From: Candidatus Poribacteria bacterium
GTDB taxonomy: Bacteria; Poribacteria; WGA-4E; WGA-3G
Direction of reading: 5' to 3'
DNA length: 64,000 bases
NCBI GenBank assembly: GCA_022828145.1
Contig: JAJEJA010000121.1
Location: forward strand, 1,968 to 65,967
Shown piece after piece: positions 1 to 28,779 of this stretch. The translations under genes and the position numbers were made by a program. The notes under the pieces were generated by a model, which made no database searches, was not told the DNA's origin, and saw only the letters and a list, made by a program, of their open reading frames with translations. Each line of letters begins with the position of its first letter. Within the stretch, counting starts at the first letter, position 1.

Positions 1-492
1 AAAAGCCCACAGTTTCTGAAACAATCCTTGAATAAACTAAGGTCTCTGAATAAGGCATTCAGCAGAAAAGTAAAGGGTTCAGGTAACTGGTATCGTGCGT
101 TACGTGCATTGGCAAGGCAGTATAGACGCATCACAATGCAACGCCTTGACTGGCAATGGAAACTTGCTGATAAACTCTGCACAGAATACGACATACTTTG
201 TTTTGAGAACCTGAACATTGACGGCATGAAAAGACTTTGGGGGAGAAAAGTATCAGACTTATCATTTTCTCAGTTTATTCAGATAATTGAGCAGAAATGT
301 ATCAAGCATGCTAAAAACTTCAAACAGATAGGTAAATGGACTGCCACTACTAAACCTTGCAGTACTTGTGGACACCATAATAAAAACCTTTCTCTTTCAG
401 ATAGACAGTGGACATGTCCAAGTTGTGGTGTAAATCACGACAGAGACATAAACGCTGCTATCAATATCAAAAAGGCTGGCTTAGCAGCCTGA
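1..492 (+). mobile_element. tnpB: IS200/IS605-family TnpB (OrfB) transposon-associated RNA-guided nuclease, 3' portion; the ORF runs open to the window start (no in-frame stop from nt 1), so it is N-terminally truncated by the window
   Basis: Translation contains the C-terminal TnpB hallmarks: a RuvC-II-like segment (ILCFENLNI), a CxxC...CxxC zinc finger (CSTCGHHNK...CPSCGVNHDRD) and RuvC-III (DINAAINI). Frame 1 is open from nt 1. Confidence 0.85.
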
Positions 493-599: not shown

Positions 600-3500
600 T
601 CAATCTTTGTTAGGTTCTGTTATAGTTCCGTAGAGTGCCTTTCTCACCAAGACTAAATCTGCTATATCAACGATACCATCCCCGTTTATGTCGGCACTAT
701 TCCCTTTACCTGTCTGTCCAAGTCGGGACGATACGAATTCTAAATCGGCGGCATCTACCTGCCAGTCTCGGTTTGCATCTTCAGGAATAAGTTCTGGTTT
801 AATGACCCAGGCATGTGTTTCTACAGGACGTGTCTCTTTACCATCTTTGTGTGTGAGAAGTACGTCAGTAATTGTTAGTGTAATGTCTGCGGGTTCTTTG
901 ACTTCAAAGGTAAGTGTTGCAATTGTTCCATTGTCAATTACAGTGCCCTTAGTAGCATTCCCTGTGACGAGAATTGTGTTTTTTCCAATTGCTTGTGTTG
1001 TGGTATTCAAGCTACTACTTTCGGTGGAGGGAATATAGCGGAGTGCTCCTGAATCGTACTTACATGTGAATTTATAAGCTGTTACGTTTTGGGCATCAAT
1101 TATTTTTACGTTAAATGTAAGTTTTTGGCTGATTGGAGGAGATTCTACGGATAGTGGTGTGATCGCAAGACGTGTAGTCGGGATTGTCTGTATATGCCAT
1201 TTTAGCGCAGTACCATCTGTACTTCCACTCAATAACGTAGTGCCATCCTCAGAATATGCAAGTGAGACGACTGAATCCAGGTGTCCTTTTAGCGTGTCAG
1301 CATGTCTTCTGCTTTTGACATCCCAAACGTAGATATTAGCGTCACGAACTGAACTGACAAGTTGCAAACCATCTGGTGAGAAAAGCAGTGTAGATGTTTC
1401 AGCCCAACGATGCATATCCAGCGAAAACGAAGTAAACGTTGCTTTGTGTTTTCCTGTTTCCACATCCCATAAATGAATTTCACCACTGACATCAATACTT
1501 GCCAGAGTCTCTCCATCTGGTGTAAATGCAACAGCATTTACAGGTAGTCGCTCACCTCTTTCAACATTCATCATATTAGCGATTGTCTTTAAGTTATTAC
1601 CCGTTTTCGCGTCCCAGATACGGATGACGTATTCATTTTCATTCAATACTTCTGCTGATGCGATCATTGCCCCATCTGGAGAAAATGTGATTGATGTAAT
1701 TCTCTCAGCATGCCCTTGAAGGGTTAATTCCTGTTCACCTGTCAACACATTCCACAAACGGATTGTATGTCCCCATCTCGTCACAACTGCCAGTATTCGT
1801 CCATCAGGAGAAAATGCATGAGCAATAAAATCACCATATTCTTCTTTGAAAGTACCTCGTTGTTCGGATGTATTTGTATCCCATAACGAAACAGATTCTG
1901 AAATCTTCCCAACAAGCGTTGCACTGTGTGGTGAAAAGGCAACTGCAGGAACTCTGATTCGATCATCTATACCGAGAAACGGTACCGTGAACTGTGGTGA
2001 GATTATTTTCCATAAATCGGTAGGTTTGACTTGAAGTTTAGAAACACCCGTTTGTTTATCAACTACGGACACATGTAAAGGTGAAATTGCATGTTCAAAA
2101 CCTGTAAGCGTTGTTATCACATCTCCAGTTTCTACATCCCACAGTTCAAATTTGTCATTTTTGGTCTGTCTGACGAATGTATTATTTTTCGGTGAAATCG
2201 GTACAAGCGTGTACTTCCCATATTCTGCTTCGCCAAACGGGTTGACAGTTACATCTGTTTTTGGATTCCAGTGCTGCAGTGTACCATCAGATTTACAACA
2301 GATAACAGTTTTTCCATCATTTGAAAACTGGACGGTCGTAAACGGATGCGTTAATCCGCGTCTTTCTTGTTCAAGCGTTGCCTGCAGTTCTCCAGTCTGT
2401 GTATCCCATACTTTTATTTTTTGGTTGGCAAATCTATTATGGTCAACTGCTGTGCTGGCAAGACTCTTTCCATCTGGAGAAAACGCGACCTTTGGGCCCC
2501 GTGGTCTGTATCCGCCACTTGTCATATAACCGCCTGTTTCCTCATCAAAGTTAAATTTGCGTTGTCCAGTTTTTGCATCCCAGAGTTTGATACTATCATC
2601 AATACTTGCACTTGCAAGTGATGTTCCATCAGGTGAAAATACCAAATCAGCGACGGTGCTATTACCTTGTGAGATTGTAAAAATTGGCTGCCAGGTCCGC
2701 ACATTCCACATTTGAATTCTCTTACCGCTTCCAGTTACAAGTGAATTTCCATTAGGGGAAAACGCGATTGCTGTGACATATCCATCCGTTTTAAGTGTTC
2801 TAATCGGTTGATATGTAGTTGTATCCCATAAACGGATTGTTGCATCATCGCTACCACTTGCAAGTAGATCCCTGTCAGGAGAGAATGCTATAACAGTCGT
2901 TGCTTTTGTATGTCCTTTAAGTAATGCAAGCACTTCACCACTGTTTACCTCCTGCAACCATATTCCGATTGTAGTTGAAATGGCAAGTAGCGAATTATCT
3001 GGGGAATACTTGATGTCATTAATTCGACCTTTTCCATAGCGTGCAATTGCGCCTTTCGGTAATTCTAATTGCGTATCGTCTCCAGGTTTTCTCTGTGTTA
3101 GATTAGGATCAAGCACTTTTCCGTGTATAATTTTGGGACGTGCTATGATGTCATCCTGCAATTCAAGGCGAACATCTTTCAGAGTTATTGTTGAGGTTTT
3201 TGCATCTATCACTTCATAGGTAATGCTTGCCAACCTTCCCTTCTTCCTTTCTTCCACTTTTCCATCTGTCCGCCCTTCCACTCTTCCAACCTTCTCTTCT
3301 TCCATCCTTCCATCCCTATCTTCTTCCACTCTTCCAACCTTCCCTTCTTCCATCCTACCATCCCTATCTCTTGATACGATATTTAGATAATGTGGATAAG
3401 ATACATTGTGGAAATCAACTACTTTCATGTGTCTGCTTTCCTTCGTTTCATAAGAGGCATTTTCTGACACAAAATCACCCTTATTGCTGGATACATAACG

Positions 3501-5543
3501 CAGAGCCGTAGGATCATACTCCATTGTAACATCATAACCTTTAATTCTATCTGCGTCAGCAATTGTAACTTCAAGAGTCAATTGTTCACCAATAGCAGGA
3601 GATCTGATTGAAGAGGGTGAAATAGATACAGTAGCATCTGACTCAACGATATGTGTTGCATCCCATAAATGTATTGTTCCATCCTCACTTCTACTAAAAA
3701 GCGTATCATCGGTAGGAGAAAACTGTAACCATGTAATCCCACCAGATGATGCCCCTATCTTACGAGGATGTCCAGAAAGTGTTTGCATGTGGTGTCCTGT
3801 TGCTGTGTTCCATAACCGAACGGTATAATCCTGACTCCCACTTGCGAGTGTTTTACCATCGTTAGAAAATGCTAAGGAACTAATGCCTTTTAAAGCTTGT
3901 TCTGTATGATGTCCCATAGACGAAATGTGTGCACCTGTATTGATGTTCCACAAATTTACCCTCCCTTCGTTCTCTCCTCCAGCAAGCATTCTTCCATCTT
4001 TCGAAATAGTTAATACTGACGGATTGATGCCTGGTTTAGGATAAGTTGCTATGCGTTTTCCTGCATCGGTATCCCACATTTCAAATTCTTCATTTGTTGC
4101 AATTACCAACATATTTCCATCTGAGGAGAATGTAAATGCCCGGACTTGATTAGCATTTTTCTCAAGTTTCAGTTTACGTTTTCTGGTTATCGTATCCCAT
4201 AATTCTATCTTACCATCTTTTATACGGATTGCAAGCGTCATGCCATCTGGAGAGTATGTCTTCTTGTTTTCATAAGGGACGATATGTGAAGACATCTCAT
4301 CCATGCCAAAAGTTTTCTTATCCATCAATTTTCCTGTCTTCGTCTCCCAAATCATACTCTCAGCTTTACTATTTCCGAATATGACTGATGCATCTTGTGA
4401 AAAAGAGAGTGAGAACAAGCCGTCTGTAAATCCAGTAAGGAGAGACTTCCGTTTACCTGTCAATGTATCCCAAATTATTACATCTTCATTACTATCGGTC
4501 GCCAACATACTTCCATCTGTTGAAAGCGTTGCATGATGACTATGGTGTGCTTGTCTGATAGTAGATTTTTGTTCTCCTGATTGTAAATCCCAGAACCGAA
4601 TAGTTCCATCAAAACTGGCACTTGCAATGGTTAAGCTGTCTGGAGAAATTGCTAACGAATCAACTGCCCATTTATGTCCGGTAAGTGTTGTTTTTTCTTT
4701 TCCTGTCCTTAAGTCCCAGATACGAATTGTTTTGTCTCCGCTACCACTAATAAGCGTTTTACCATCAGGCGTAAATACCAATGCGTGAACCGGATATGTA
4801 TGTCCACTAAGCGTCTTAACGTGTTTTCCGGTTATCGGATCCCATAGTCTAATGGTGAATTTAGGACTACCTGCGATCAATCTACCATCAGGTGAAAATG
4901 CGATGGACTTATCTACTGTAGCGTTCATAGTGAGCGTATGTATATTCTTCCCAGTTTCTATATCCCATAATCTAAGTTTATCATCTACATCCGAACTTGC
5001 GAGTGTTTTGCCATCAGGAGAAAAGAGAATCCTGCTATACGATCTCGCTTGGATCTTGCGAATCTGTTGTTGAGTTTCTATATCCCACAATGTAATATAC
5101 GTTCCACTGCTACCAGCAAGCGTTTTGCCATCAGGTGAATATGTTATGTATCTTGCGCCACCGGGTAACGTCGCTTTGTGTTCTCTGGTTATCACATCCC
5201 ACAGATAAATCAAATAATTATTATTCACAGTTGCGAGCGATTTACTATCAGGTGAAAACGCAACAGAATTGACCCTTCCAATATGTGCAGTCAGCAGCGC
5301 AATTTCCTTACTCGTATTTGCATCATACAGCCATGTTCCTATTGAACTACCGACTGCCAGTAGTTTGCCATCAGGTGAATACGCAATATCCGTTGGCTGT
5401 CCTCTACCAATCCGTCCTATTGCATTTTCAGGCAATGACATTTGAAATGCATTTTGTCCGTTGCTTTCTAAGATCAATATAACACTCAATGCCAGAATGA
5501 TAAATAGAATTCTCCACATTTTCATTTTAATTTTCCTCCTCAT
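600..5543 (-). CDS. Giant secreted WD40 beta-propeller repeat protein (1647 aa in the longest ORF) with two cohesin-like modules (about nt 3380-3640 and 776-1121) and a C-terminal type-I dockerin (about nt 603-760). The likely true start is the ATG at 5525, which has an AGGAGG 9 nt upstream.
   Basis: The N-terminal signal-peptide-like hydrophobic segment is followed by dozens of WD40-like blades (recurring FSPDGK.L, LWD, GH motifs). Cohesin-like segments resemble clostridial cohesins (AYKFTCKYDSGALRYI compares with CDFTLKYD..LEVV; GYDVTMEYDPTALRYVS). The C-terminus DINGDGIVDIADLVLV is a dockerin Ca-binding repeat. Confidence 0.8.
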   Translation of the reverse strand: MRRKIKMKMWRILFIILALSVILILESNGQNAFQMSLPENAIGRIGRGQPTDIAYSPDGKLLAVGSSIGTWLYDANTSKEIALLTAHIGRVNSVAFSPDSKSLATVNNNYLIYLWDVITREHKATLPGGARYITYSPDGKTLAGSSGTYITLWDIETQQQIRKIQARSYSRILFSPDGKTLASSDVDDKLRLWDIETGKNIHTLTMNATVDKSIAFSPDGRLIAGSPKFTIRLWDPITGKHVKTLSGHTYPVHALVFTPDGKTLISGSGDKTIRIWDLRTGKEKTTLTGHKWAVDSLAISPDSLTIASASFDGTIRFWDLQSGEQKSTIRQAHHSHHATLSTDGSMLATDSNEDVIIWDTLTGKRKSLLTGFTDGLFSLSFSQDASVIFGNSKAESMIWETKTGKLMDKKTFGMDEMSSHIVPYENKKTYSPDGMTLAIRIKDGKIELWDTITRKRKLKLEKNANQVRAFTFSSDGNMLVIATNEEFEMWDTDAGKRIATYPKPGINPSVLTISKDGRMLAGGENEGRVNLWNINTGAHISSMGHHTEQALKGISSLAFSNDGKTLASGSQDYTVRLWNTATGHHMQTLSGHPRKIGASSGGITWLQFSPTDDTLFSRSEDGTIHLWDATHIVESDATVSISPSSIRSPAIGEQLTLEVTIADADRIKGYDVTMEYDPTALRYVSSNKGDFVSENASYETKESRHMKVVDFHNVSYPHYLNIVSRDRDGRMEEGKVGRVEEDRDGRMEEEKVGRVEGRTDGKVEERKKGRLASITYEVIDAKTSTITLKDVRLELQDDIIARPKIIHGKVLDPNLTQRKPGDDTQLELPKGAIARYGKGRINDIKYSPDNSLLAISTTIGIWLQEVNSGEVLALLKGHTKATTVIAFSPDRDLLASGSDDATIRLWDTTTYQPIRTLKTDGYVTAIAFSPNGNSLVTGSGKRIQMWNVRTWQPIFTISQGNSTVADLVFSPDGTSLASASIDDSIKLWDAKTGQRKFNFDEETGGYMTSGGYRPRGPKVAFSPDGKSLASTAVDHNRFANQKIKVWDTQTGELQATLEQERRGLTHPFTTVQFSNDGKTVICCKSDGTLQHWNPKTDVTVNPFGEAEYGKYTLVPISPKNNTFVRQTKNDKFELWDVETGDVITTLTGFEHAISPLHVSVVDKQTGVSKLQVKPTDLWKIISPQFTVPFLGIDDRIRVPAVAFSPHSATLVGKISESVSLWDTNTSEQRGTFKEEYGDFIAHAFSPDGRILAVVTRWGHTIRLWNVLTGEQELTLQGHAERITSITFSPDGAMIASAEVLNENEYVIRIWDAKTGNNLKTIANMMNVERGERLPVNAVAFTPDGETLASIDVSGEIHLWDVETGKHKATFTSFSLDMHRWAETSTLLFSPDGLQLVSSVRDANIYVWDVKSRRHADTLKGHLDSVVSLAYSEDGTTLLSGSTDGTALKWHIQTIPTTRLAITPLSVESPPISQKLTFNVKIIDAQNVTAYKFTCKYDSGALRYIPSTESSSLNTTTQAIGKNTILVTGNATKGTVIDNGTIATLTFEVKEPADITLTITDVLLTHKDGKETRPVETHAWVIKPELIPEDANRDWQVDAADLEFVSSRLGQTGKGNSADINGDGIVDIADLVLVRKALYGTITEPNKD
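3230..3375. repeat. Tandem repeat of about 45 bp (2-3 units) encoding a charged DRDGRMEE(G/E)KVGRVE linker inside the giant WD40 gene
   Basis: A near-identical DNA unit (tcttccactcttccaaccttc.cttcttccatcct.ccatccctatct) is seen twice in tandem. The protein shows the periodic DRDGRMEEGKVGRVEEDRDGRMEEEKVGRVE. Confidence 0.7.
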
Positions 5544-8178
5544 TTCTCACTGTAGGGCGCAGGCGTTTTCCCTCTATGTCAGAGAGAATGAGATCGGTTA
5601 TCTTTAGGGCGGTTATCTTTAAGGGGGAAGGAGATTCATCTAAAATCTCAAAAGTAATTGTCGCAAGTGTGCCGTTTCCATTACCCACGCCTATCAATGC
5701 GGTTGCTGCAAGTGTTAATTGATTTTTCTTTAATATCGGTTTTATAAAGAACGGGTGATCTGGCAAGAAATCTCCATTACTACTTGAGATATATCGGAGT
5801 CTTCTTTCATCAAATTGGAGTGTTAATTGATAGCCAGCGACGTTTTCTCCATTGATTATCTCGATGTTATATTTCTGTTGTTTCCCAATAGTTTTCTGCT
5901 GTGTTGAAGGCACAATGTTTACGGTCATGTTTTTATTTTCACGTTCTACCTGTTCCCATATAACGATTGTTCCATCATAGCTTGCACTGGTAACTGTTTC
6001 GTCTATTGGAGATAACGCCATTGAAGTAACGTTTGAATTGTGTCCATTTAGAGTCTTTATACGTTGACGAAGCTGAATATCCCATATCTCAATGTTGCCT
6101 CCAAAATCACCGTAGAGTATCTTGCTGTCTGGTGAAAACATCAATGGGAACGCACCACTTTTCTCAGATAACGTTGATATGTTTTTTCCTGTATCTACAT
6201 CCCATAATTGTGTTGTTTTACCACAACTGATAAGTGATTTTCCATCAGGTGAAAACGTTAATGTGAAATTGTTGTCCAGATGGCCCGAAAGCGTACGTTT
6301 ATGTTTTCCTGTATAAGCATCCCACAATTGAATCTCCCATTCGCCACCCGTTGCGAGTATTTTTCCGTCTGGTGAGAATGCTAATGCGCGCGTGCTCCAC
6401 GGGTGTCCTTCAAGCGTAAATCGCTGTTCTCCAGTAGCAGTGTTCCATACCCGTATCTCTTTTTCGCTTGCACTTGCAAGCACAGTCTGATCATTTGAAA
6501 ACAAGACTCTATCTACTTTTTTCGTATGTCCTACCAACATCTTTTTGGGTTTTCCGGAGTATGCATCCCACAGGAATATCGTCTTATCTGCGCTTCCACT
6601 TGCAAGTATTTTGTTATCTGATGAAAATGCTAATGACAGCACTACCTCAGAATGTCCCGTAAGGTTTGCAAGAGTCTTACCTGTTTTCACATCCCACAGT
6701 TTCACATCCCACTGTCTTAATGTGTTTTCCTTACTTGCACTTGCAAACGTTTTTCCATCTGGAGATAAGGCAGCCGCAATGACTGAATCTGTATGTCCGT
6801 TAAGTGTCGAATGATATTTATAAGTCTCACCATCAAACAACCAGATTTTGGCTGTCCCGTCTCCACAAGCGAATGTTTTACCATCCTTTGAGAGTAGGAC
6901 AAAAGGATGACCGTATCTGTGGCTGCGTTGGCTCGGGTAACTGAACTGTGCTATCTGTATGCCAGTTTTTGCATCCCATAACTGAATTTCATTACTATTC
7001 CAACTTGCAAACTTAGAACCTTCTGGCGAGAATGCCAACCGAGAAACAATCCCTGTCAGAGTCAGCGTTTTCTGTGGAGATTTCAACGTTTCTGCATCTT
7101 TTTCCTCCTTGCTGTTACCTTTCAGATTGTTGACATCTAACCACCGAATTGTAGTGTTCGTTTGGTCTTCTGTGGAAACTATTCTTAAACCGTCAGGTGA
7201 ATAAGCGATTGCGTAAACGCTATTTAGTTTTGCATCTAATTCTGCCTTCGGTTTTCCGGAGTATGCATCCCACAGTCGCACTGTGGACATCTCAACTCCA
7301 TGACATGTAACAAAGGTTGAGCTATTGAGAGAAAAGGCAATTACACCTAAATTACATTCTTGATAGACTGCTATTATGTTTTCTGAATGTGTATCCCACA
7401 ACCTAACAACCCCATTGGAATTCTGTGTTGCAATACGTTTGCCATTAGGTGAGAATAACACTGCATTGGGACCTTGTCCCCCTCCTTTCAACAGAGCATG
7501 CTGCTTGCCGTTGTCAGCATTCCAGAGGCGAACAGTCCCATCGGTGCTTGCACTGGCAAGCATTGTGGCATCTGGTGAGAATTTCAATGCCGTGATCCAA
7601 CCCGTGTGTCCCGTAAGTGTCAACTTCTCTTTCATATTCACGAGGTCCCACAATCTGACAGAACTATCAGCATTTTCTGGTTCCGGAGCTTCCATGTCCC
7701 CCCAAAAATTATTTCTTCTGATTTGACTGCTTCTTACTGTGCCACTGGCAAGTGTTTTACTATCTGAAGAGAATGCTAAAGCTCTGGTATCACCTGTATG
7801 TCCTGAAAATGTTGCGATATGTTTGTATGAATTGGCATCCCACACGCGCACTGTTTTGTCGTAGCTACCGCTTGCGATGCGTTTCCCATCAGGCGAATAT
7901 ACAACTGCCGTAACAGCATCTGTATGTCCGGTAAGCAATGCTAAATCCTCTCCGGTATGTGCATCATGAATCCAAATTCCGATGTGGGAGCATGCAATGG
8001 CTATTTTTTTACCGTCCGGTGAAAAGTCGAAGTCCGTCCAACGTCCTTGTCCAATTCGCATCTTTGCCCCTTCAGGTAATGCACGAAGGGGTAGCGGTGG
8101 ACCGCTTCCAATAGCATTGGTTAGTAATATGGTTAGGAGTGTTAATGTGCTGATGATTATGGATATGTGTTTTTTCAT
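5527..8178 (-). CDS. Secreted WD40 beta-propeller repeat protein (883 aa) with a C-terminal cohesin-like module (about nt 5568-5901)
   Basis: N-terminal signal-like segment. An AGGAGGAG RBS lies about 10 nt upstream of the ATG at 8178. There are many WD40 blades. The C-terminal GYQLTLQFDERRLRYISS...TLATITFEILD matches the cohesin-like pattern seen in the neighbouring gene. Confidence 0.8.
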   Translation of the reverse strand: MKKHISIIISTLTLLTILLTNAIGSGPPLPLRALPEGAKMRIGQGRWTDFDFSPDGKKIAIACSHIGIWIHDAHTGEDLALLTGHTDAVTAVVYSPDGKRIASGSYDKTVRVWDANSYKHIATFSGHTGDTRALAFSSDSKTLASGTVRSSQIRRNNFWGDMEAPEPENADSSVRLWDLVNMKEKLTLTGHTGWITALKFSPDATMLASASTDGTVRLWNADNGKQHALLKGGGQGPNAVLFSPNGKRIATQNSNGVVRLWDTHSENIIAVYQECNLGVIAFSLNSSTFVTCHGVEMSTVRLWDAYSGKPKAELDAKLNSVYAIAYSPDGLRIVSTEDQTNTTIRWLDVNNLKGNSKEEKDAETLKSPQKTLTLTGIVSRLAFSPEGSKFASWNSNEIQLWDAKTGIQIAQFSYPSQRSHRYGHPFVLLSKDGKTFACGDGTAKIWLFDGETYKYHSTLNGHTDSVIAAALSPDGKTFASASKENTLRQWDVKLWDVKTGKTLANLTGHSEVVLSLAFSSDNKILASGSADKTIFLWDAYSGKPKKMLVGHTKKVDRVLFSNDQTVLASASEKEIRVWNTATGEQRFTLEGHPWSTRALAFSPDGKILATGGEWEIQLWDAYTGKHKRTLSGHLDNNFTLTFSPDGKSLISCGKTTQLWDVDTGKNISTLSEKSGAFPLMFSPDSKILYGDFGGNIEIWDIQLRQRIKTLNGHNSNVTSMALSPIDETVTSASYDGTIVIWEQVERENKNMTVNIVPSTQQKTIGKQQKYNIEIINGENVAGYQLTLQFDERRLRYISSSNGDFLPDHPFFIKPILKKNQLTLAATALIGVGNGNGTLATITFEILDESPSPLKITALKITDLILSDIEGKRLRPTVRNEEEN

Positions 8179-8330
8179 AAAATCTATCTCCTCCTAATGC
8201 GCTTGCATGCTGTAAAGTCTTTTTGTATGTATATTTGCTAACTGGAATTTTTCAAAAAGGTATGATTGATTTCTTAATTCTAACACTGTTTCATAATGTC
8301 AACAAGTATATATTAACCTAAGTTGTCACC

Positions 8331-8472
8331 CTAGTGGATAGTCCAGACTAAACTTGTGGGTATAAGTAATAGTCGGGAATCGGAGTTCCCTCCTACCAAT
8401 AGTAGTCCATCGGTAGGAGCGATCTCCGAATCGCGACCTTTACCCGAAGAATTAGAATGGACTATCTACTAG
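8331..8472. repeat. 142-bp palindromic MITE-like intergenic element, copy A. Terminal inverted repeats are ctagtggatagtcc / ggactatctactag, with internal inverted sub-repeats.
   Basis: The reverse complement of this element recurs at 48169-48293, and a rearranged degenerate copy lies at 13475-13545. TIRs and internal hairpin arms are visible directly. Confidence 0.6.
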
Positions 8473-8698
8473 TACAGCAATTTGGATTATAGGGTGTGTA
8501 AAGATTTTGTCACTATAAGTGTCAGTTTAAAAGGAATTACACCCATGCGTCTAACTCGGTAGGTGCGGTTTCCTAACAGCACTGATTATGATTACTGAGG
8601 TACAAAGATGGAAATGGTAACTGAAAGTGGAATATGGTTAATCCAATGTGTTCACGCAGCCATGCTGCCGTTGTAGGCACAGCATATAGATTACACTG

Positions 8699-9901
8699 TT
8701 ATTCTTCAGTGTTGTCAACCGTATTCCCAAATGCTGATGCCACAATGACTAAGTCCTGAATGTTCACAACACCATCACCGTTGAGATCCGGTTCCGATTC
8801 ACCAAAAGCATTTGCTACAACCTCCAAATCCTGAATATTGACAACACCATCATTATTCACATCTTCGGGCAGTTGTGAAGGTGCAATATTCCACAGGTAG
8901 ATAGTGCCGTAGCTTGTTCCACTTGCAAGTGTATGGCCATCCGGACTAAACGCCACGCTTTGGATTCTGGACTTTAAGAAACTGCGAAGATAACTCCCCG
9001 TGTGCACATCCCATAAACGGACCTCCCCTCCACTACCACTTGCAAGTGTCTTCCCATCCGGACTAAACGCCACGCTATAGACTCCATCCGTATCAGATAC
9101 CTTCCGGACCAAATGGTGAAGCAGGTGTCCTGTGCTTGCATCCCATAAACGAATACCGCTCCACTGTGCCCAACTCGCAAGTATTTTTCCATCCGGGCTG
9201 AACGATACACGCACGGCATTAAGATCTTCTGATACTATCGTCCGCTTGTGATTACCTGTCGCTACATCCCATAAATTGAGTCCAGACGAACTGCTACTCA
9301 CAAGTGTTTTTCCATCCGGACTGAATGCCACCCCAGTAACCCAATTCATATCTTCAGTCAAAGTGTGCAGCAGACTCCCTGTGATCACATCCCATAAAAA
9401 AACAACGCCTAAACCTCCACTCGCTAATTCTCCACCTGCCGCAAGGATGCTACCATCAGGACTCAACGCTACACTAAGGAGAAGACTCATTTGACTCCTA
9501 TTGAGTGTGTGAAGCAGGTTTCCTGTACTTACATCCCATAAATGGACACCTGCCACACCACTACTCACGAGTGTTTTTCCATCCGCACTGAACGAAACAC
9601 CTGTGCGAAAGAAAAAACCCGGATCCGATCTGAGCAGATACATTTTTTCATGCGTCTGTATGTTGTAGAGGAACACACCGGTGGCATTCATGACCGCTAA
9701 TAGCTTACCGTCTGGTGAATATTCTACGTCATAAACGCGCCCTTCACCGAGACGCAAAATAGATTTGACAGATTTAGGCAAAACTTCCTGCTCCACATCC
9801 TCAGCGAAAGTATTTAGGGCAAAGGTAAGTATTAGGATTATGAGGCAAAGTAATTTCGTTTTCATCGTTAACCTCCTCCTGTAATGTGCGATAATAAACA
9901 C
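8699..9901 (-). CDS. Secreted WD40 repeat protein with a C-terminal tandem (two-segment) type-I dockerin. The likely start is the ATG at 9865, preceded by AGGAGGAGG.
   Basis: Signal-like MKTKLLCLIILILTFALNTFA. WD40 blades (FSPDGK.LAS, LWDV). The C-terminus is DVNNDGVVNIQDLEVVANAFG...DLNGDGVVNIQDLVIVASAFG. Confidence 0.8.
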   Translation of the reverse strand: MFIIAHYRRRLTMKTKLLCLIILILTFALNTFAEDVEQEVLPKSVKSILRLGEGRVYDVEYSPDGKLLAVMNATGVFLYNIQTHEKMYLLRSDPGFFFRTGVSFSADGKTLVSSGVAGVHLWDVSTGNLLHTLNRSQMSLLLSVALSPDGSILAAGGELASGGLGVVFLWDVITGSLLHTLTEDMNWVTGVAFSPDGKTLVSSSSSGLNLWDVATGNHKRTIVSEDLNAVRVSFSPDGKILASWAQWSGIRLWDASTGHLLHHLVRKVSDTDGVYSVAFSPDGKTLASGSGGEVRLWDVHTGSYLRSFLKSRIQSVAFSPDGHTLASGTSYGTIYLWNIAPSQLPEDVNNDGVVNIQDLEVVANAFGESEPDLNGDGVVNIQDLVIVASAFGNTVDNTEE

Positions 9902-9965
9902 ATTCTATCACAAAACGAAATAATATGTATCAATAGTTCTAAATGCCACTATATCAACAAGCATG

Positions 9966-10082
9966 TTATTCTTCAGGAGCGGCGAGTGTATTTCCAAATG
10001 ATGCGGCAAGAAGTGCCAAATCTAAAATGTCAACGGTGCCATCCCTGCTAACATCTTCGGACAAGTATGTGTACGCGCAAGG
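9966..10082 (-). pseudogene. In-frame dockerin-repeat fragment (..SEDVSRDGTVDILDLALLAASFGNTLAAPEE*) lying directly after the tandem TAG-TAG stops of the metalloprotease gene. Likely a displaced or duplicated 3' gene end.
   Basis: Manual minus-strand translation of 10082..9966 gives a complete dockerin Ca-binding repeat in the same frame as the upstream CDS. It is separated from that CDS only by two consecutive TAG codons (10083-10088). Confidence 0.5.
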
Positions 10083-10085
10083 CTA

Positions 10086-11489
10086 CTAATCCATTGCCTC
10101 AGAAACAAGTGCCAAATCCAAAACATCAACGGTACCGTCATTGTTAACATCAGAAGTTGTTCCACTCTCACCAAAGTTTGCGGCAACCGTCAATAGGTCA
10201 ATAAGATCAACAACACAGTCACCGTTAACGTCTGCGGGTCTTCGGACACACACACCTGTCTCAGGAGTATACGTTCTATCGGGAGGATACCCAGACGCCC
10301 CAGAATCTCCACTCCTCCCAGAACCAGTTAAAGCGTACTCTTGATCATGATGTGAGGCAAATTGGGTTACATGTGCCAGTGGCCAATCGCCCGGGATCCA
10401 CATATAACAGTTCGGGGAGTCGAAATCTGGACAATGACCAAGACTAACACCGTGCCCAATTTCATGGGCGATGACACCACTTGTAAAAGCACCAATATCC
10501 ACATCTCTTCCACCCTCTTTCCATCTCGTAATTGTTGTATTTATAACATTGGGGTAGATGCACCCACTTGTAGCGTATGAGGGAGGTCCGTACCCCATTT
10601 CACCAAGTCGCCCAGAAGTGTTACAGCTCGGATCTAGCGTTGGGTCACCCAAAAGTCTAATTGCCCGAACCCCTACTTCATCTCTACCAATAGCTTCTCC
10701 TGATACAATATAATAATCATAGACATATCCTAACTGAAAGGGCACCTCGTATGTTCCCATCTCATGGATCGTCATAGGCAAAGCCCCAGCACCACCGATG
10801 CCGACATCGGAGCGGATGAAAACATCCCACGCATTAGGATCTGTATCTGTCCATGTGCCGCTGACATAGAGACCTCGGTATTCATTGATTACGGTAATGC
10901 CATCACCAGTATTGGAATTGGGACCGCTATCATTATCATCATCTTGTCCATAGTTCACGGTGCCGTCGTTTCGCCAACCGTCGGCAATTTTATTCCCATT
11001 ATTGTCTTTGGGAATTTTTATAACGACCTCGTTTGATGTATAACCGGAACCGGATGCTGTCAATTTTAATTCACCGTAAGCAGCGTAGTCGTAACAGCTA
11101 ACGATAAGGGACATTGTCTGTATCGCATTCGTGCTGAGGGCGTATGTAAGGGTACTTCCGCTTATTGACCAGTCTGCATTCTGACTCGTAGTTTTATACA
11201 TGATCAGATCAGGGGACCCGGGATCTGTACACCTCGAATTCCCTGCATCTCCTTCATAACTTGTCACATTCTGGAGTTCTGCGATCAGCGTCCCACTGGT
11301 GAAATCAGCAGGCACGGTGACTCTTATCTCAAAAGTCAATGAGGTACCCGCTTCTGGCCGCCAATTTGGGTCAAGATATGGTTGTTCGATCTGGATGGAT
11401 GCTGTTTGCTGTGCATCCAGGGCAGTGTTTCCCTGGTTAAAAAGACATAGAAGGCACAAGATGCCGATTAAAACAAAAGTGAATTTCAT
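10086..11489 (-). CDS. Secreted metzincin-type zinc metalloprotease (HExxHxxGxxH) with C-terminal dockerin repeats
   Basis: Signal peptide MKFTFVLIGILCLLCLF. The zinc-binding motif is AHEIGHGVSLGH, followed by a possible Met-turn (CYMW). The C-terminus is DVNGDCVVDLIDLLTVAANFG...DVNNDGTVDVLDLALV. Confidence 0.75.
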   Translation of the reverse strand: MKFTFVLIGILCLLCLFNQGNTALDAQQTASIQIEQPYLDPNWRPEAGTSLTFEIRVTVPADFTSGTLIAELQNVTSYEGDAGNSRCTDPGSPDLIMYKTTSQNADWSISGSTLTYALSTNAIQTMSLIVSCYDYAAYGELKLTASGSGYTSNEVVIKIPKDNNGNKIADGWRNDGTVNYGQDDDNDSGPNSNTGDGITVINEYRGLYVSGTWTDTDPNAWDVFIRSDVGIGGAGALPMTIHEMGTYEVPFQLGYVYDYYIVSGEAIGRDEVGVRAIRLLGDPTLDPSCNTSGRLGEMGYGPPSYATSGCIYPNVINTTITRWKEGGRDVDIGAFTSGVIAHEIGHGVSLGHCPDFDSPNCYMWIPGDWPLAHVTQFASHHDQEYALTGSGRSGDSGASGYPPDRTYTPETGVCVRRPADVNGDCVVDLIDLLTVAANFGESGTTSDVNNDGTVDVLDLALVSEAMD

Positions 11490-11672
11490 TTGATTATCCT
11501 TTTTCTATGATAGGTTTATGGTTAAATCTAAAATACTTAGAACTTACGCATCCCTCTTAAAGTCCACCTGATAAAGGGGATTTAGAGGCTAAACAACTGA
11601 AATAGTGACTTTTTTGATGAAATATATTGCTTTTGGACATAATTTGCGTCTGTCCTGACACTAATACGATCT

Positions 11673-13181
11673 TCATTTTCTGTTTTGTGAGTTATTGCGG
11701 CGAGATGGGTGTTTATCTTCAATAAATTGTTCCATCTGTTTCGCAAGTTCGGGATCCTTTTCTTTAAGCCGCTGTAAGCCTTCTTTAGGCCCGTATCGTT
11801 CAATCATTTCATAAGCGCGGACTGTACGCTCTGGTTCAAACAAGGCATCGTCGTTCTTAAGGTGTGCCGTGAATTCCTTGGAAAGAAAGTCATTGAAATC
11901 AACAGAGTCCTCCGCGTTCATGATACTTTCCGCCCATTTGAGGAATTCTTCAAGCTCCTGCTGTGAGCCAGCTTGCTGTCGTAGAAATTCTGCCTGCTGT
12001 CGTTGGAATTCTGCACGTGCGGCTTCAGTGCGTTCAACTTTTCGACGTTCCTTGTCTGTCAGTTGATTTTCCGATGTGTGGTGTTCCTTGGATGGAAATT
12101 CCGATAGCCAAGGAGTTTCTTCTGGCACCGGTGGCGACGTTTCACCATGTGGTACTGTTCCGTTATCCAATGGTGTCACATCGGCTTCTGGTATTGGAGA
12201 AGATGTGCGCGAAATCGGTGCATACAAGGGATTGCTCAATTCAATCGCGCGTTTGTGTAGTTCAACGAGGTTTCCGTTCTGTATCGTTTGCTGCTTTCTA
12301 TAGTAAAGCCAAGCGGTTTTGAGGTCACCAAGTCGTTCATACGCCAACCCTAAACTAAAAAGTCCGCGTGTAGTGTCGAGGTTGTTTACCTTCTTTAGGT
12401 GTTGAATTGCCTCCTCCGGATCGTCGTAATGCAGTCGGTATCCTAATGCATTGAGGGCACGGAGGTCATTAGGATATTTCGCGACAATATTGCGGTATCC
12501 TGCAGCTGCTACCGCGTCATCCGGTTCTGCGCTTAGCAGTACCACTTGGGCATCAGGATTGTTTGGATCCCTTGCAAGAACACGCATCGCGTAGGTTTCT
12601 TTCTCTTTCCAACGCACCCTCACTTGATAGAGGTAGTCAATAGCACGGCGAGGTTCCAGTTCGTCTAAAATGAGAGGGTTGTAAATTTGATATGTTTCAA
12701 GGAAGATGACAGCATCCTCTGGGGTCATACCGCCGACGAGAATGTCATATCTTCTTTTGTGTGCTGCTTCAGTTACAACTTTTTCATCATCCCGTATTTC
12801 ATACATTGTTCCTGCGATAACCATTTCCCGATATATCTGATCGAGGCGCGATTGAATATTTACTGGGAGAAGTGGCGGTGGTGGAATAGCACTTGTACTA
12901 GGGAGAATAGGTCCTATATTCTTCAGTACACGGTTTGGGCGGGCATTGGTCTTGGGACGTACGCGTTTGATTTTTGGCGGCGGAGCGTGCGGTGTTTCTA
13001 CGTGCATGTGCTCTCCCGGTGGAGGTAGTTTTGCAGTGTTGTGGGTGTCTGTATTTGGTGCTTCTTGTGTGGCGTCCAAGGTTAGTCTATCGTAAACAAG
13101 AACCCCGATGCAAAGTAGTACGAGCGCGCCAAATGTACCGAGTAAAGAAGATTTCCAATAGTCTTTTACGAAAGCGATCAT
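11673..13181 (-). CDS. Membrane-anchored hypothetical protein with a proline-rich segment, TPR-like repeats and a charged coiled-coil C-terminus
   Basis: One N-terminal TM helix (LLGTFGALVLLCIGVLVY), PPP-rich linker, TPR-like AL.ALGYRLHY / LGLAYERLGDLKTAWLYY segments, and a K/E/R-rich tail. Confidence 0.55.
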   Translation of the reverse strand: MIAFVKDYWKSSLLGTFGALVLLCIGVLVYDRLTLDATQEAPNTDTHNTAKLPPPGEHMHVETPHAPPPKIKRVRPKTNARPNRVLKNIGPILPSTSAIPPPPLLPVNIQSRLDQIYREMVIAGTMYEIRDDEKVVTEAAHKRRYDILVGGMTPEDAVIFLETYQIYNPLILDELEPRRAIDYLYQVRVRWKEKETYAMRVLARDPNNPDAQVVLLSAEPDDAVAAAGYRNIVAKYPNDLRALNALGYRLHYDDPEEAIQHLKKVNNLDTTRGLFSLGLAYERLGDLKTAWLYYRKQQTIQNGNLVELHKRAIELSNPLYAPISRTSSPIPEADVTPLDNGTVPHGETSPPVPEETPWLSEFPSKEHHTSENQLTDKERRKVERTEAARAEFQRQQAEFLRQQAGSQQELEEFLKWAESIMNAEDSVDFNDFLSKEFTAHLKNDDALFEPERTVRAYEMIERYGPKEGLQRLKEKDPELAKQMEQFIEDKHPSRRNNSQNRK

Positions 13182-13474
13182 ATCCGTTTCTCCTTTATTT
13201 GTGGATCTTGCATTGTATATATGTAAGAATCATTTTCAATGTGCTGGATAAACGGGTGACTTCTGTATTACGTTCATCGCTTGAGTACCATGCAGACAGC
13301 AGCACCCGAAAAGACAAGACGTTAAGAAGTTTATTTAGTGAACTCATAGCGGATAACATCTAAGAATCGTCGAAAATCACCCGAAAATCTATCATAGAAT
13401 ATGCTAATACTGAAATCCTAAACGCGTTTCATTGAGTTTATCACAACTAAACGCAAGTTTCTATGGAACATTTT

Positions 13475-13545
13475 GAGATGTAGGATAGAACTCCGATTCC
13501 TGACTATCACTACATTAAGTCGAGATTAGGAGATCGCTCCTACTA
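13475..13545. repeat. Degenerate or rearranged copy of the MITE-like palindromic element (copy C)
   Basis: Contains ggatagaactccgattcctgactatcact and gattaggagatcgctcctac, matching the two internal arms of the elements at 8331-8472 and 48169-48293. Confidence 0.4.
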
Positions 13546-13984
13546 AGGACTTTTTATCACTGTTTTACAATGTTCTCTCTTTACTATATATATCACATAA
13601 GATTCAAAATCTTTAGTACTTTTTTCATTTCTCGGTTGCTTTTGGGTTTCAGCTGCCATAATAACACCCTTCATAAAGTGATTGGATTCTGATATGGATT
13701 GAAAGGGACATATTTTATATCCTTTTCTATCCTTATTACACCATATCTTTAGGTTTTACTCAATATGAGTTCAATGACAAAAATGAGCGAATATGTTTTT
13801 TGATGGTAAGTATTATAAGATTTCATCCACCGTTCCCCAGATTTTTCAAAGTAGAGAAAACTGATACCATAACTTACACAGACGATATACCATAACAAGG
13901 CGATCCGTGGTAGTTCTTGCCGTTTCAATCATAAATGCCGAAAACCGAAAAGTGTCTTTATAACTCGGAAACATTCTTCTATCT

Positions 13985-14400
13985 GCATCCGCTGTCAGAA
14001 TGTCGGATTACGCGGAGGACGCGGAAGGGGTTTCTTGGGCATTTCAAGTTTACTTTCACAAGTTGGTGTTGATTTTAGCAAAACCCCATAGGTGTCAATT
14101 TAGTACAGAGAAGGGTAATAAAGGATGAATGGCGTTGGAGAAAGAGGCACAATCAAGGATGAATGTGCTACAGCAGTATCAAGTTTTTTCCTGTGCGGAG
14201 AAGGATAATGAAGGATGAATGGGTTGGGAGATAGAAGCACAATCTAACAGAATGTGCTACAGGCATGGTCTTGGGAATCGCTCAATTGATGATTATAGGC
14301 GATTTTAGCAAAACCCTCTTTTTCTGTGTTCTCCGTGCCTTCCGCGATTCTGACGCGTAATCCGTCTGAATCGCGGCAAGCGCGGAGGAGGTGGATATGC
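13985..14400. repeat. About 400-bp repeat-structured non-coding block. It has imperfect flanking inverted repeats (cggattacgcggaggacgcggaagg / ccttccgcgattctgacgcgtaatccg), two copies of gattttagcaaaaccc and two about 60-bp tandem units (aaggatgaatgg.gttggaga.aga.gcacaatc...gaatgtgctacag).
   Basis: Repeats identified by eye directly in the sequence. There is no convincing ORF. Could be a MITE, an IS remnant or an sRNA locus. Confidence 0.4.
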
Positions 14401-14442
14401 TCCTGAATCTTCTGTAAAAACTTTACACACTCTAAGCATAAC

Positions 14443-14521
14443 TATACACCTGTCGCCCCGCTGGGGGTAAAGATTATTGTATATTTGCATTTCTATACAC
14501 CTGTCGCCCCGCTGGGACTAA
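14443..14521 (+). promoter_or_regulatory. Two identical 24-bp direct repeats (ctatacacctgtcgccccgctggg) 55 bp apart, immediately upstream of a sigma70-like promoter. Candidate activator or repressor binding sites.
   Basis: Exact repeat at 14443-14466 and 14498-14521, positioned about -50 to -125 relative to the predicted promoter. Confidence 0.4.
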
Positions 14522-17476: not shown

Positions 17477-19408
17477 CTACTTGGTGTTCTCAAGTTCTTG
17501 GAGTGATTGCTCAATCTCGTCTTTGAGTTCTTGGTTGCCCACTTGTTCTGCTAATTCCAAGGCAGTTTCAAAATCTAATTTCGCTTCCTTGATATGACCA
17601 AAATCAACTTTTTCTTTCCCACGATTATGGTAGGTTTCAGTCATATCTGGTTTTATCCGGAGTGCTTCATTATAATCTGCAAAGGCCTCTTCATGGCGGC
17701 CCAACGCGCGCTTCGCAAGGCCCCGATTTTTGTAAGCAAAAGCATGATCTGGGTTAAGTTCAATTGCCTTATTATATTCTGCCACTGCTGCCTCATATTG
17801 TCCCAACTGTGCCTTCGCAAATCCCAGGTTGTTGTAAGCAGTAGGATGGTCCGATTTTCGTTCAATTACTTCAGCAAAATCTGCAATTGCCTTCTCATAT
17901 TTTCCAGACTCAAGTTTTGCATAGCCACGGTTGTTGTAAGCATCGACGTTACTTGAGTCCAACCTGAGGATATTATCGTAATCTGCAATTGCAGCCCTAT
18001 ATTGCCCTAATCGTATATTAGCAAAACCTCGCCTGAAATAGGCATCAATAAAATCTGGACTTATTTCAATAGTTTTATTGTAATCTGCAATTGCCCTCTT
18101 GAAATCCTTATGTTCATCTATCATAGAACCACGAGTGAAATAAGCTATAGTGGCAATAACATCCTCAGAATCAAGTTGGATAACTTCCTTAAGATCGGAA
18201 AGCGCGTCTTCAAAACATCCCAATTCGCCTCTTACAAGACTACGATTGAGGTAAGCTGGAGCGAACTCCGGTTCTAATTTGATAACTTTATTGAAGTCGG
18301 TAAGGGCATCCTTAAGTTGTTTCAATTGTTGTTTAGCAATTCCTCTACCATAGTATGCATTGGTATAATTGGGATTTAGTTGAATTGCTTTGTCAAAGTC
18401 AACTAATGCAGCCCCAAATTGCTCTAATTCAAACTTCGCAATTCCTCTATTGTAGTAAACCTCTATATAATCCGGTTCCAACTTAACTGCTTTATCATAG
18501 TCCTGAATTGCTGCTTCAAATTTATTCAGAAAAAAATTTGCATATCCACGACAGTGGTAGGTGATTGCTGCATTCGAATCCAATTGAATCGCCTTATTAT
18601 AATCCTCAATTGCAAGGTCATGTTGACCTAACTGTGCTTTGGTATAACCGCGATAATGGTAGATCTGGGCAGAATCTGGATCTAGCAGGAGAGACTGATC
18701 ATAGTCCTCAATAGCATCTTGATATTGTCCTATTTTGCTTTTTACATTAGCACGATAATAGTAAGCTTCGACATAGTCAGGTTTAAGTTGTATCGCTTTA
18801 CTATAGTCCTTAATAGCATCCTGAAATTGGTCAAGTTCACTCTTTACAATACCTCTATTGTGGAAAGCATCGGCGTTGTCAGGATTTAAACGTAATGCGT
18901 TGTCATAATCAACGACTGCCTGCTCATAATCACCAAGTTCACTCCTTGCCCATCCACGGTTGTAATAAGCATCTGCATACTCTGGATTGAGACGGACCGC
19001 CTCATCATAATCAGAAATTGCGTCTTCAAGTTGCCCGAGCAGCGATTTTGTAGCACCTCGGTCATTGTAAGCGATAGCATTATCTGGATTGAGATTGAGA
19101 GATTTGTCGTAAGCGGAGAGTGCGTCTTCTTTCTGATCGTCTTGTGTAAGGAGGGATGCAATGGAAAACCATGCGTAGGCAGCAATTTCGTTCTTTATTC
19201 CTTCTGTTATATTTGCGATTGAACGCCACTTTTCGATCGCACCTTCGATTTCTCCATCTTGTTGCAGTAGGTAAGCATCAATTATTGCTCTGCCTATGAC
19301 AGACAATTCGGTATTCTGTAGTTCTTCTTGTAAGATTTCCTCAACTTTTCCTGCTTGTTCCGGATCGCTGATACTTTCTATAATTTCAATTAATGTTTTT
19401 GTGTTCAC
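17477..19408 (-). CDS. Tetratricopeptide (TPR) repeat protein (about 16 tandem 34-aa TPR units)
   Basis: Regular AYYNRG.AK..LG.YEEAI.DY.KAI.L.PD repeats throughout the 643 aa. Confidence 0.85.
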   Translation of the reverse strand: MNTKTLIEIIESISDPEQAGKVEEILQEELQNTELSVIGRAIIDAYLLQQDGEIEGAIEKWRSIANITEGIKNEIAAYAWFSIASLLTQDDQKEDALSAYDKSLNLNPDNAIAYNDRGATKSLLGQLEDAISDYDEAVRLNPEYADAYYNRGWARSELGDYEQAVVDYDNALRLNPDNADAFHNRGIVKSELDQFQDAIKDYSKAIQLKPDYVEAYYYRANVKSKIGQYQDAIEDYDQSLLLDPDSAQIYHYRGYTKAQLGQHDLAIEDYNKAIQLDSNAAITYHCRGYANFFLNKFEAAIQDYDKAVKLEPDYIEVYYNRGIAKFELEQFGAALVDFDKAIQLNPNYTNAYYGRGIAKQQLKQLKDALTDFNKVIKLEPEFAPAYLNRSLVRGELGCFEDALSDLKEVIQLDSEDVIATIAYFTRGSMIDEHKDFKRAIADYNKTIEISPDFIDAYFRRGFANIRLGQYRAAIADYDNILRLDSSNVDAYNNRGYAKLESGKYEKAIADFAEVIERKSDHPTAYNNLGFAKAQLGQYEAAVAEYNKAIELNPDHAFAYKNRGLAKRALGRHEEAFADYNEALRIKPDMTETYHNRGKEKVDFGHIKEAKLDFETALELAEQVGNQELKDEIEQSLQELENTK

Positions 19409-25022: not shown

Positions 25023-25067
25023 AGTATACCTCCAATTCCAAGTTCTCTTAAAGTAACTTATTTCATT

Positions 25068-27842: not shown

Positions 27843-27931
27843 GGTGTTTCCTTTGTTTATTTTGGCATATCATAACATAAAAGCGGGAATTGTGAAAGTA
27901 ACGTTTATTTTTGCAACAAGCAGTATAAAAA

Positions 27932-28699: not shown

Positions 28700-28779
28700 A
28701 TCTTCTCAATCCTGAGTAAATTGAAACTTTATTCAATATTACATGCCTTTTGTTGTCTAAGTTTAGTATGTTTTAATAC

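Follow-up and report, generated by a model that had tools for sequence, protein, structure and literature searches.

A non-cellulolytic cohesin-dockerin region of Candidatus Poribacteria and its place in a proposed lineage-wide assembly system

The question raised by this locus is what cohesin and dockerin modules, the connectors known from cellulosomes, might be assembling on WD40 proteins and a zinc protease. The locus lies in the window, by which we mean the whole 64,000-nucleotide stretch of the Candidatus Poribacteria contig JAJEJA010000121.1 that was analysed. A preliminary description, made from the sequence alone, had proposed a cellulosome-like complex encoded there by four adjacent genes. 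On our analysis, the region is best explained as one local part of a non-cellulolytic system for cohesin-dockerin assembly that extends across the lineage of Candidatus Poribacteria, a group of sponge symbionts. A functional cohesin-dockerin-mediated assembly of the four proteins, here termed P1 to P4, is considered probable, if well short of certain. The genes concerned, together with a fifth that was outside the earlier finding, are the following.

600-5543, minus strand: P1, a 1647-aa open reading frame (ORF), or 1641 aa from the ATG at 5525 chosen by the gene callers of public assemblies.
5527-8178, minus strand: P2, an ORF of 883 aa.
8699-9901, minus strand: P3, a 400-aa ORF whose probable start, the ATG at 9865, gives 388 aa.
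10086-11489, minus strand: P4, an ORF of 467 aa.
11673-13181, minus strand: P5, an ORF of 502 aa directly upstream of P4 and the fifth co-oriented gene of the unit.

The four consecutive minus-strand ORFs for putatively secreted proteins were confirmed, and N-termini of the Sec type, with their basic, hydrophobic and small-residue pattern, were read by eye on P1, P2, P3 and P4. It was noted that the stop of P2 and the start of P1 overlap or abut, because the gene callers place the P1 start at the ATG at 5525.

We assessed whether the proposed modules are cohesins at all. The segments lying outside the WD40 repeats were scanned separately, and all three candidates scored above the PF00963 (Cohesin) gathering cut-off of 24.1 bits.

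3090-3647, minus strand: P1 cohesin 1, aa 633-818, PF00963 33.7 bits (N-terminal part, aa ~650-700).
774-1184, minus strand: P1 cohesin 2, aa 1454-1590, PF00963 36.1 bits (aa ~1480-1575).
5536-5940, minus strand: P2 cohesin, aa 747-881, PF00963 30.6 bits (aa ~775-870).

The Pfam match to cohesin 1 is partial because of a loop insertion, and a family hidden Markov model (HMM) matched this module in two stretches, aa 635-701 and 765-819. An AlphaFold2 model of P1 aa 1453-1647, comprising cohesin 2 and the dockerin and built from an alignment of 82 sequences, had a mean predicted local distance difference test (pLDDT) score of 92.8 and a predicted template modelling (pTM) score of 0.79, and consisted of a beta-sandwich followed by two helices (model aa 146-153 and 175-186) in the dockerin part. 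When this model was searched against the PDB with Foldseek, the top 50 matches were all cohesins, with E-values down to 3e-10 and target-normalised TM-scores of 0.71-0.76, and they spanned types I, II and III as well as the C. perfringens and Archaeoglobus fulgidus cohesins. The predicted structure of cohesin 2 thus has the nine-stranded jelly-roll fold of the family.

The dockerins were identified in the same manner, with a PF00404 (Dockerin_1) gathering cut-off of 22.9 bits.

624-788, minus strand: P1 dockerin, aa 1586-1640, PF00404 34.3 bits, directly abutting cohesin 2.
8720-8872, minus strand: P3 dockerin, aa 344-394, PF00404 37.9 bits, with near-identical repeats (VVNIQDL twice).
10089-10241, minus strand: P4 dockerin, aa 417-467, PF00404 32.0 bits.

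Each of the three comprises two loop-and-helix segments of ~22 residues, and in the alignment both calcium-loop motifs (D-x-N/D-x-D ... D) are complete. EF-hand families gave lower scores that fell below their own cut-offs (EF-hand_1, 24.5 against 25.4). By sequence and predicted fold, then, the cohesins and dockerins of the window are bona fide. The preliminary description had named generic Ig or CARDB sandwiches and generic EF-hands as what would overturn it; the Pfam and fold searches returned cohesins and dockerins instead. The Ig/CARDB reading falls because the 50 best PDB matches are all cohesins, and generic Ig or EF-hand domains were excluded on the Pfam and fold results together. The 1647-aa WD40 protein with two cohesins and a C-terminal dockerin and the 883-aa WD40 protein with one cohesin (30.6 bits) were as first described, all their modules lying above the gathering scores. 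The numbers of dockerins had to be corrected: the supposed double dockerin of the 400-aa protein is one dockerin of two canonical 22-residue repeats, and the protease, whose dockerin is real at 32.0 bits, carries a single module and not several. Two tandem dockerins of differing sequence were observed in the protease paralogues L005, L006, L007 and L015 of other poribacterial genomes, and one in P4 and its closest relative, L014.

The bulk of P1, P2 and P3 is made up of WD40 repeats, with PF00400 E-values of 3e-129, 2e-98 and 1e-32, respectively. An HMM built from the repeats of the window counted 24, 15 and 7 of them, approximately four, two and one seven-bladed propellers, in keeping with the multiples of seven expected of WD40 proteins. 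P1 reads from its N-terminus as signal peptide, ~14 WD40 blades, cohesin 1, another ~14 blades, cohesin 2 and dockerin. In P2 a signal peptide is followed by ~14 blades, forming a double propeller, and a single C-terminal cohesin, and in P3 by one seven-bladed propeller and one dockerin. With cohesins and a dockerin of its own that belongs to a different class, P1 may by analogy be called adaptor-scaffoldin-like. The earlier wording, which made the WD40 proteins themselves the scaffoldins, overstates the role of the propellers; these are more likely the payload, with the cohesins and dockerins as connectors.

It had further been suggested that P1 is a tandem duplication of the P2 architecture, with signal peptide, WD40 and cohesin repeated and the halves joined by a repetitive charged linker. 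The stretches aa 34-627 and aa 825-1449 of P1 are collinear (28.6% identity, E 7e-76), and both halves also align with P2; because the halves are collinear with each other and with P2, the duplication itself holds. The details do not, since the second half has no signal peptide and the supposed linker is something else.

3243-3369, minus strand: tandem repeat, a purine-rich 48-nt unit in ~2.6 copies, in frame and encoding DRDGRMEEGKVGRVEE.

This repeat, with Tandem Repeats Finder scores of 150-176, was placed by alignment to the cohesin 2 model in a loop of cohesin 1, the one flanked by the strands of model residues 71-77 and 87-96. An inter-domain linker was rejected on the same alignment, and the charged stretch thought to join the P1 halves in fact lies inside the first cohesin. 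The orthologue in the TARA Pacific contig L003 and the 82%-identical P0206 carry a single copy, the expansion being confined to the window genome, and because of these single-copy orthologues the repeat is read as a recent in-frame expansion. Either a contingency-type polymorphism in length or neutral slippage could account for such an expansion in a cohesin loop.

We sought to characterize the sequence classes of the connectors across related genomes. Three conserved dockerin classes were distinguished, and each dockerin of the window belongs to a different one. The WD40-type class has near-identical repeats (DxNxDGVVNIQDL twice) and a short linker, and is nearly invariant over loci whose propellers share only 43-53% identity; in cellulosomal dockerins, such repeat symmetry permits dual binding modes. 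The P1-type class (D-x-N-R-D-W-Q...LEFVSSRLGQ) was kept in six of six clusters of P1-like proteins, and the protease-type class is more variable. The cohesins of P1-like proteins group by position, as a Coh1 and a Coh2 clade, and not by protein; within P1 the two share 27-29% identity, and the P2 cohesin groups with a general type that is followed by a dockerin and a tail. This positional clustering is the pattern expected if the two positions bind different partners, though as evidence it is indirect.

These classes bear on a reading in which the modules are relics, the cohesins being non-pairing Ig-like spacers or adhesion domains and the dockerins calcium-binding, stabilising tails on independent proteins. 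Many non-cellulosomal modules have no known partner, as relayed by Chadwick et al. 2022 (PMC9012536, citing Peer et al. 2009), and a cohesin 1 that tolerates a 30-residue repeat expansion would suit such a role. Relics would sit poorly with dockerin classes that are strongly conserved across genomes, putative recognition helices included, and with WD40-type dockerins that stay near-identical on propellers that have diverged as far as noted above. They would also not be expected to keep positional cohesin classes over deep divergence, nor to show cohesins and dockerins expanded together in one lineage. We regard this explanation as highly improbable, and a connector function remains the preferred reading.

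The spread of the cohesin type was then examined. A search with a single sequence returned just 4 relatives and a profile search of a word-indexed database 282 proteins, while an exhaustive comparison of the profile with 1.84 billion cluster representatives gave 609 at E-values of at most 1e-30 and 3389 at E-values of at most 1e-10. Relatives bearing the NCBI name "[Candidatus Poribacteria bacterium]" were among the profile matches. The window itself, which is identical to the ENA scaffold KELL22-1_SAMN22237338, encodes a NadE that falls in a 90%-identity cluster labelled as the NAD(+) synthase of Candidatus Poribacteria. Architectures were censused with custom HMMs in the best 147 new cluster representatives. 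The survey of relatives that had been called for recovered the WD40-cohesin combination: WD40 repeats were found in 45 of the 147, and the P1 architecture recurs in six independent 50%-identity clusters of ~1600 aa that carry 22-27 blades, have their cohesins near aa 640 and 1400 and end in a dockerin. At least three cohesins were present in 6 of the 147, and one of these proteins (P0160) combines seven blades with five cohesins.

In 123 of the 147 representatives a cohesin is directly followed by a dockerin, and at least 100 aa more follow the dockerin in 105 of these 123; this tail was FlgD_ig in six of the seven such proteins (tails of at least 100 aa) checked with Pfam. Eight examples lacking WD40 carried, by Pfam, N-terminal leucine-rich repeats (LRR), low-density-lipoprotein-receptor class B (YWTD) repeats, cadherin, beta-helix, laminin G, Big_1 or PKD domains; seven of the eight end in FlgD_ig, one of the seven also having a Por_Secre_tail. 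Among the 121 short matches, 33 were cohesin proteins of 200-270 aa with a lipobox-like N-terminus, which judging from these N-termini are plausible envelope anchors.

The prevalence of the cohesin-dockerin tandem raises the alternative that the two modules bind each other, either as an intramolecular clasp or head to tail in a homopolymer, which would yield a surface coat or fibre of propellers and not a heteromeric enzyme complex. In the 123 representatives, and likewise in P1, the dockerin begins at most a few residues from where the cohesin ends, and the two-domain AlphaFold2 model is confident overall (pTM 0.79). The other proteins of the window do not follow this design: P2 has a cohesin and no dockerin, P3 and P4 have dockerins and no cohesin, and intermolecular partners are accordingly required for those three. 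We consider self-binding distinctly unlikely, and assembly between different proteins is retained.

Whether these partners are the neighbouring genes themselves was addressed through the arrangement of the locus in other genomes. On this comparison the region is not an indivisible operon: the P2-P1 pair forms one heritable unit and the P5-P4-P3 cassette another, and their adjacency in the window genome is incidental. The cassette order of P5, protease-dockerin and WD40-dockerin was encountered in six other loci, four of them in the metagenome-assembled genome (MAG) CBDANF01 and two on L014 and L015, each with one to four downstream WD40-dockerin genes of 7 or 14 blades; all ten of the downstream dockerin genes tested were WD40 by Pfam. 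P5 stands upstream of the protease in all six and is the most conserved member (70-73% identity, compared with 48-74% for the protease). It has an N-terminal transmembrane helix, Pro-rich stretches, a tetratricopeptide-repeat (TPR) region with weak TPR matches, and a charged C-terminal region that by eye looks coiled-coil-like. No cohesin was found within 10 kb of these six cassettes, and synteny thus indicates no partner.

The P2-P1 pair, for its part, lies beside the same Fer4 and aminotransferase genes in L017 (94-97% DNA identity) and L003 (85-88%), and the P5-P4-P3 cassette is absent from this locus in both. Relative to L017 the difference is a clean insertion or deletion.

8316-14521: the 6.2-kb indel segment, with P3, P4, P5 and ~1.3 kb without a sizeable ORF; breakpoints by blastn against L017, where it corresponds to 9864-9871.

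The junctions show no visible target-site duplication, and the ~1.3-kb non-coding stretch (13182-14521) has no ORF longer than 61 aa. Because L017 lacks the 6.2-kb segment, the side-by-side arrangement is taken to be recent and lineage-specific. In L003, the P2 orthologue is split at 7869-10663 into an ORF with 13 WD40 repeats and an overlapping ORF with 2 repeats and the cohesin, which suggests a frameshift or an assembly error; this contig ends with a 1616-aa LRR-cohesin protein followed by a small FlgD_ig/Por_Secre_tail ORF.

These observations weigh on the most literal version of the earlier proposal, a closed machine in which the P2 cohesin holds the P1 dockerin and the two P1 cohesins hold P3 and P4. 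Its appeal lies in the exact match of three cohesins with three dockerins, each of a different class and the sole ones in the 64 kb (HMMs for both modules found none beyond P1-P4), and in the translational coupling of P2 and P1. Set against this are the cassette missing from a 94-97% identical genome that keeps P2-P1, the six other cassettes, which include one to four WD40-dockerin genes but have no cohesin in their vicinity, and the hundreds more cohesin and dockerin proteins in the lineage. As the adjacency is recent and no cohesin lies near the other cassettes, co-location lends no support to a specific pairing, and because of this recency we rate the closed machine as unlikely. The four genes, first presented as a single machine, are two independently inherited units joined by a 6.2-kb indel. 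What stands of the non-cellulolytic extracellular complex is real modules on proteins with Sec signals and no carbohydrate-active enzymes (CAZymes); its portrayal as a self-contained four-gene device is not supported.

The catalytic candidate of the system is P4. It consists of a signal peptide, a beta-sandwich (aa 32-159), an acidic linker of low model confidence, a catalytic domain (aa 207-385, DNA 10335-10871) and the dockerin, with a pLDDT of 80.9 for the AlphaFold2 model. The linker is rich in Asp and Asn and may possibly bind calcium.

10401-10466, minus strand: P4 zinc motif, aa 342-363, HEIGHGVSLGHC...CYM.

The preliminary description had called P4 an HExxHxxGxxH metalloprotease. The zinc protease is upheld as metzincin-like, and the motif is amended: the site reads HEIGHGVSLGH, that is HExxHxxSxxH. 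H342, E343 and H346 are kept in 33 of 33 aligned homologues, the third histidine (H352) in 32 and M363 in 31, while the canonical Gly position of the extended metzincin consensus (HExxHxxGxxH/D) is N in 16, H in 8, S in 7 and G in 2, and is thus replaced in 31 of the 33. M363, in the sequence N-C-Y-M-W, provides a Met-turn and aligns with the C-V-M of ADAM33. A profile of 35 homologues matched metzincins of the PDB (ADAM33, archaemetzincin, snake-venom metalloproteinases, serralysin and MMP-3) around the zinc site only, and the catalytic domain is assigned a metzincin-like fold. No peptidase family of Pfam or NCBIfam scored above threshold for P4, the sub-threshold scores being 15.4 bits against 27 for Reprolysin_5 and 11.8 against 24.4 for M54. 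The family has ~38 detectable members, mostly on contigs of poribacterial type, and in the one-genome-per-species GTDB the only full-length relatives are four paralogues from one Candidatus Poribacteria MAG. P4 would define an unclassified family of dockerin-bearing metzincins. C353, C361 and M363 are conserved beside the zinc site. It was also observed that Cys132 and Asp134 of the N-terminal beta-sandwich are invariant in 35 of 35 members, and that a conserved C353...C361...H380-H381 set adjoins the zinc site (features Cys132 to H381 lie within window positions 10347-11096). By analogy with archaemetzincins, these two sets could form a cysteine switch and/or a second metal site.

Taken as a mechanism, the proposed assembly would begin after export, when calcium-loaded dockerins would insert into cohesins and tether propellers and protease in multi-subunit complexes. 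P1 would act as an adaptor, its two cohesins recruiting dockerin-bearing propellers of the P3 type and/or the P4 protease, and its own dockerin attaching the complex to the P2 cohesin or to a lipoprotein-type or sorting-domain-bearing cohesin encoded elsewhere. The propellers would be the ligand-binding payload and the protease the catalytic subunit, and at the cell surface the two would probably act jointly on proteins of the host or the matrix. A role at the inner membrane, in exporting, maturing or regulating the products of the cassette, may fall to P5.

Several points weigh against this explanation. The 30-residue expansion might impair cohesin 1, and no obvious anchor (lipobox or C-terminal sorting domain) was seen in P1-P4. 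The signal peptides of these four rest on reading by eye. The placement of the P5-P4-P3 cassette next to P2-P1 is recent and unconserved, none of the other cassettes has a cohesin close by, and the taxonomic assignments cover a minority of the 609 clusters.

Of the genomic features that mark sponge symbionts, eukaryote-like repeat proteins (ELPs) are the best known, yet little is understood of their delivery, their organisation or their presentation to the host (Robbins 2021). A wider and more tentative possibility, in which we place less trust than in the assembly of P1-P4, is that cohesin-dockerin pairing serves as a lineage-wide surface-display machine, assembling ELPs (WD40, LRR, YWTD and cadherin) and proteases in Poribacteria and possibly in other sponge or coral symbionts. 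As part of the same tentative reading, the machine would be anchored by lipoprotein cohesins or sorting-domain tails, with P1 and its clients as one adaptor set. If true, this would supply a so-far missing mechanism for presenting ELPs to the host, carry the cohesin-dockerin principle beyond polysaccharide degradation in Firmicutes, to host interaction in a bacterial lineage outside that group, and provide new orthogonal pairs for protein engineering. If many ELPs carry working connectors, their quaternary organisation would be predictable from sequence and testable by recombinant binding assays, and an interaction code could be mapped as for cellulosomes.

The remainder of the window was surveyed for further features. 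No family of glycoside hydrolases, carbohydrate esterases or polysaccharide lyases was found among the ORFs of 150 aa or longer, which bears out the statement that no glycoside hydrolase is present. Rfam and tRNA scans of the 64 kb returned no matches. A promoter and terminator scan gave the same counts as shuffled sequence, its sole feature being an 11/12 promoter-like site at 8513-8486, upstream of P2. Adjoining P1 downstream is a TnpB/Cas12f1-like gene fragment (OrfB_IS605 and TNB; 28-492, plus strand) that runs off the window start and is 370 aa on the public scaffold. A complete Hma anti-phage system was noted at 22215-32316 on the minus strand, with full-length PADLOC matches that all have E = 0 and a 255-aa ORF of no assigned function between HmaB and HmaA.

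22215-25022, minus strand: HmaC, AAA+ ATPase (PADLOC).
25068-27842, minus strand: HmaB, DNA-adenine methylase (PADLOC).
28780-32316, minus strand: HmaA, SNF2 helicase (PADLOC).

A fusion of a protein-kinase domain, TPRs and a C-terminal FGE-sulfatase (sulfatase-modifying-factor-like) domain is encoded at 62089-63906 (minus strand), and other TPR-rich proteins lie at 17477-19408, 19405-20088, 51211-52473 and 60426-61715.

When compared with known systems, the region shares with cellulosomes its connector modules (Pfam Cohesin and Dockerin_1), the cellulosomal cohesins among its best PDB matches, and dockerins with two calcium-loop repeats. P1 is similar to adaptor scaffoldins such as A. cellulolyticus ScaA in having cohesins together with a dockerin of a different class. 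The differences are more extensive. A CAZyme complex of the cellulosome or amylosome type was rejected, there being neither CAZymes nor carbohydrate-binding modules (CBMs). Where cellulosomes bear dockerins on CAZymes, those of the window are on a WD40 propeller, a metalloprotease and P1, and in place of a multi-cohesin, CBM-bearing scaffoldin there are WD40-dominated proteins with one (P2) or two (P1) cohesins and no CBM, the cargo being propellers and a metalloprotease. No S-layer homology (SLH) or LPXTG family was found in P1-P5; instead of the SLH or sortase anchors of cellulosomes, the wider family has lipobox cohesins and FlgD_ig/Por_Secre_tail tails. Cellulosomes are furthermore known from Clostridia and Ruminococcus, which are Firmicutes, whereas this system belongs to Candidatus Poribacteria.

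Among metzincins (adamalysins/ADAMs, archaemetzincins of M54, MMPs and snapalysin), P4 shares HExxHxxxxxH with the third histidine and a conserved Met at least 7 residues downstream of the zinc site (C-Y-M), and its cysteine pattern, H-C ... C-x-M, recalls that of archaemetzincins. It departs from them in the N/H/S at the canonical Gly position, the extra N-terminal beta-sandwich and the C-terminal dockerin.

With regard to the lineage, poribacterial genomes have abundant WD40 genes, and transmembrane helices or signal peptides occur on many other eukaryote-like proteins (Kamke et al. 2014, PMC3909097); many of the eukaryote-like genes, especially WD40, carry the TIGR04183 Por-type C-terminal sorting domain (PMC3909097). 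The sponge-symbiont ELPs of Kamke et al. 2014 are thus of the same lineage and protein class as the proteins of the window. Cohesins and dockerins are not mentioned in Kamke 2014 (PMC3909097), in Robbins 2021 or in Kelly et al. 2022, who described Caribbean Ircinia sponge microbiomes with 40 Poribacteria MAGs. Literature searches, whose coverage did not extend to most subscription journals, found no link of Poribacteria or sponge symbionts with either module and no description of such a system, in line with the earlier remark that it is at best sparsely described.

Outside cellulosomes, cohesin and dockerin modules are widespread in bacteria and archaea, according to the account in Chadwick et al. 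2022 (PMC9012536, citing Peer et al. 2009). Archaeal cohesin-dockerin pairs have been shown to bind (Chadwick et al. 2022, PMC9012536), and anaerobic methanotrophic (ANME) archaea possess scaffoldin-like proteins with up to five cohesins whose role is not known (PMC9012536). The non-cellulosomal modules of Archaeoglobus fulgidus, the C. perfringens toxin complex and ANME resemble those of the window in that the hosts do not degrade cellulose and the proteins are unrelated in function. The window system belongs with these non-cellulosomal cohesin-dockerin systems, and the searched literature does not describe it. It differs from the others in the systematic fusion of the connectors to eukaryote-like repeats (WD40, LRR, YWTD and cadherin), in the recurrent cohesin-dockerin-FlgD_ig tail, in the P1 arrangement of 14 WD40 blades and a cohesin, twice over, followed by a dockerin, and in a conserved cassette that includes a protease.

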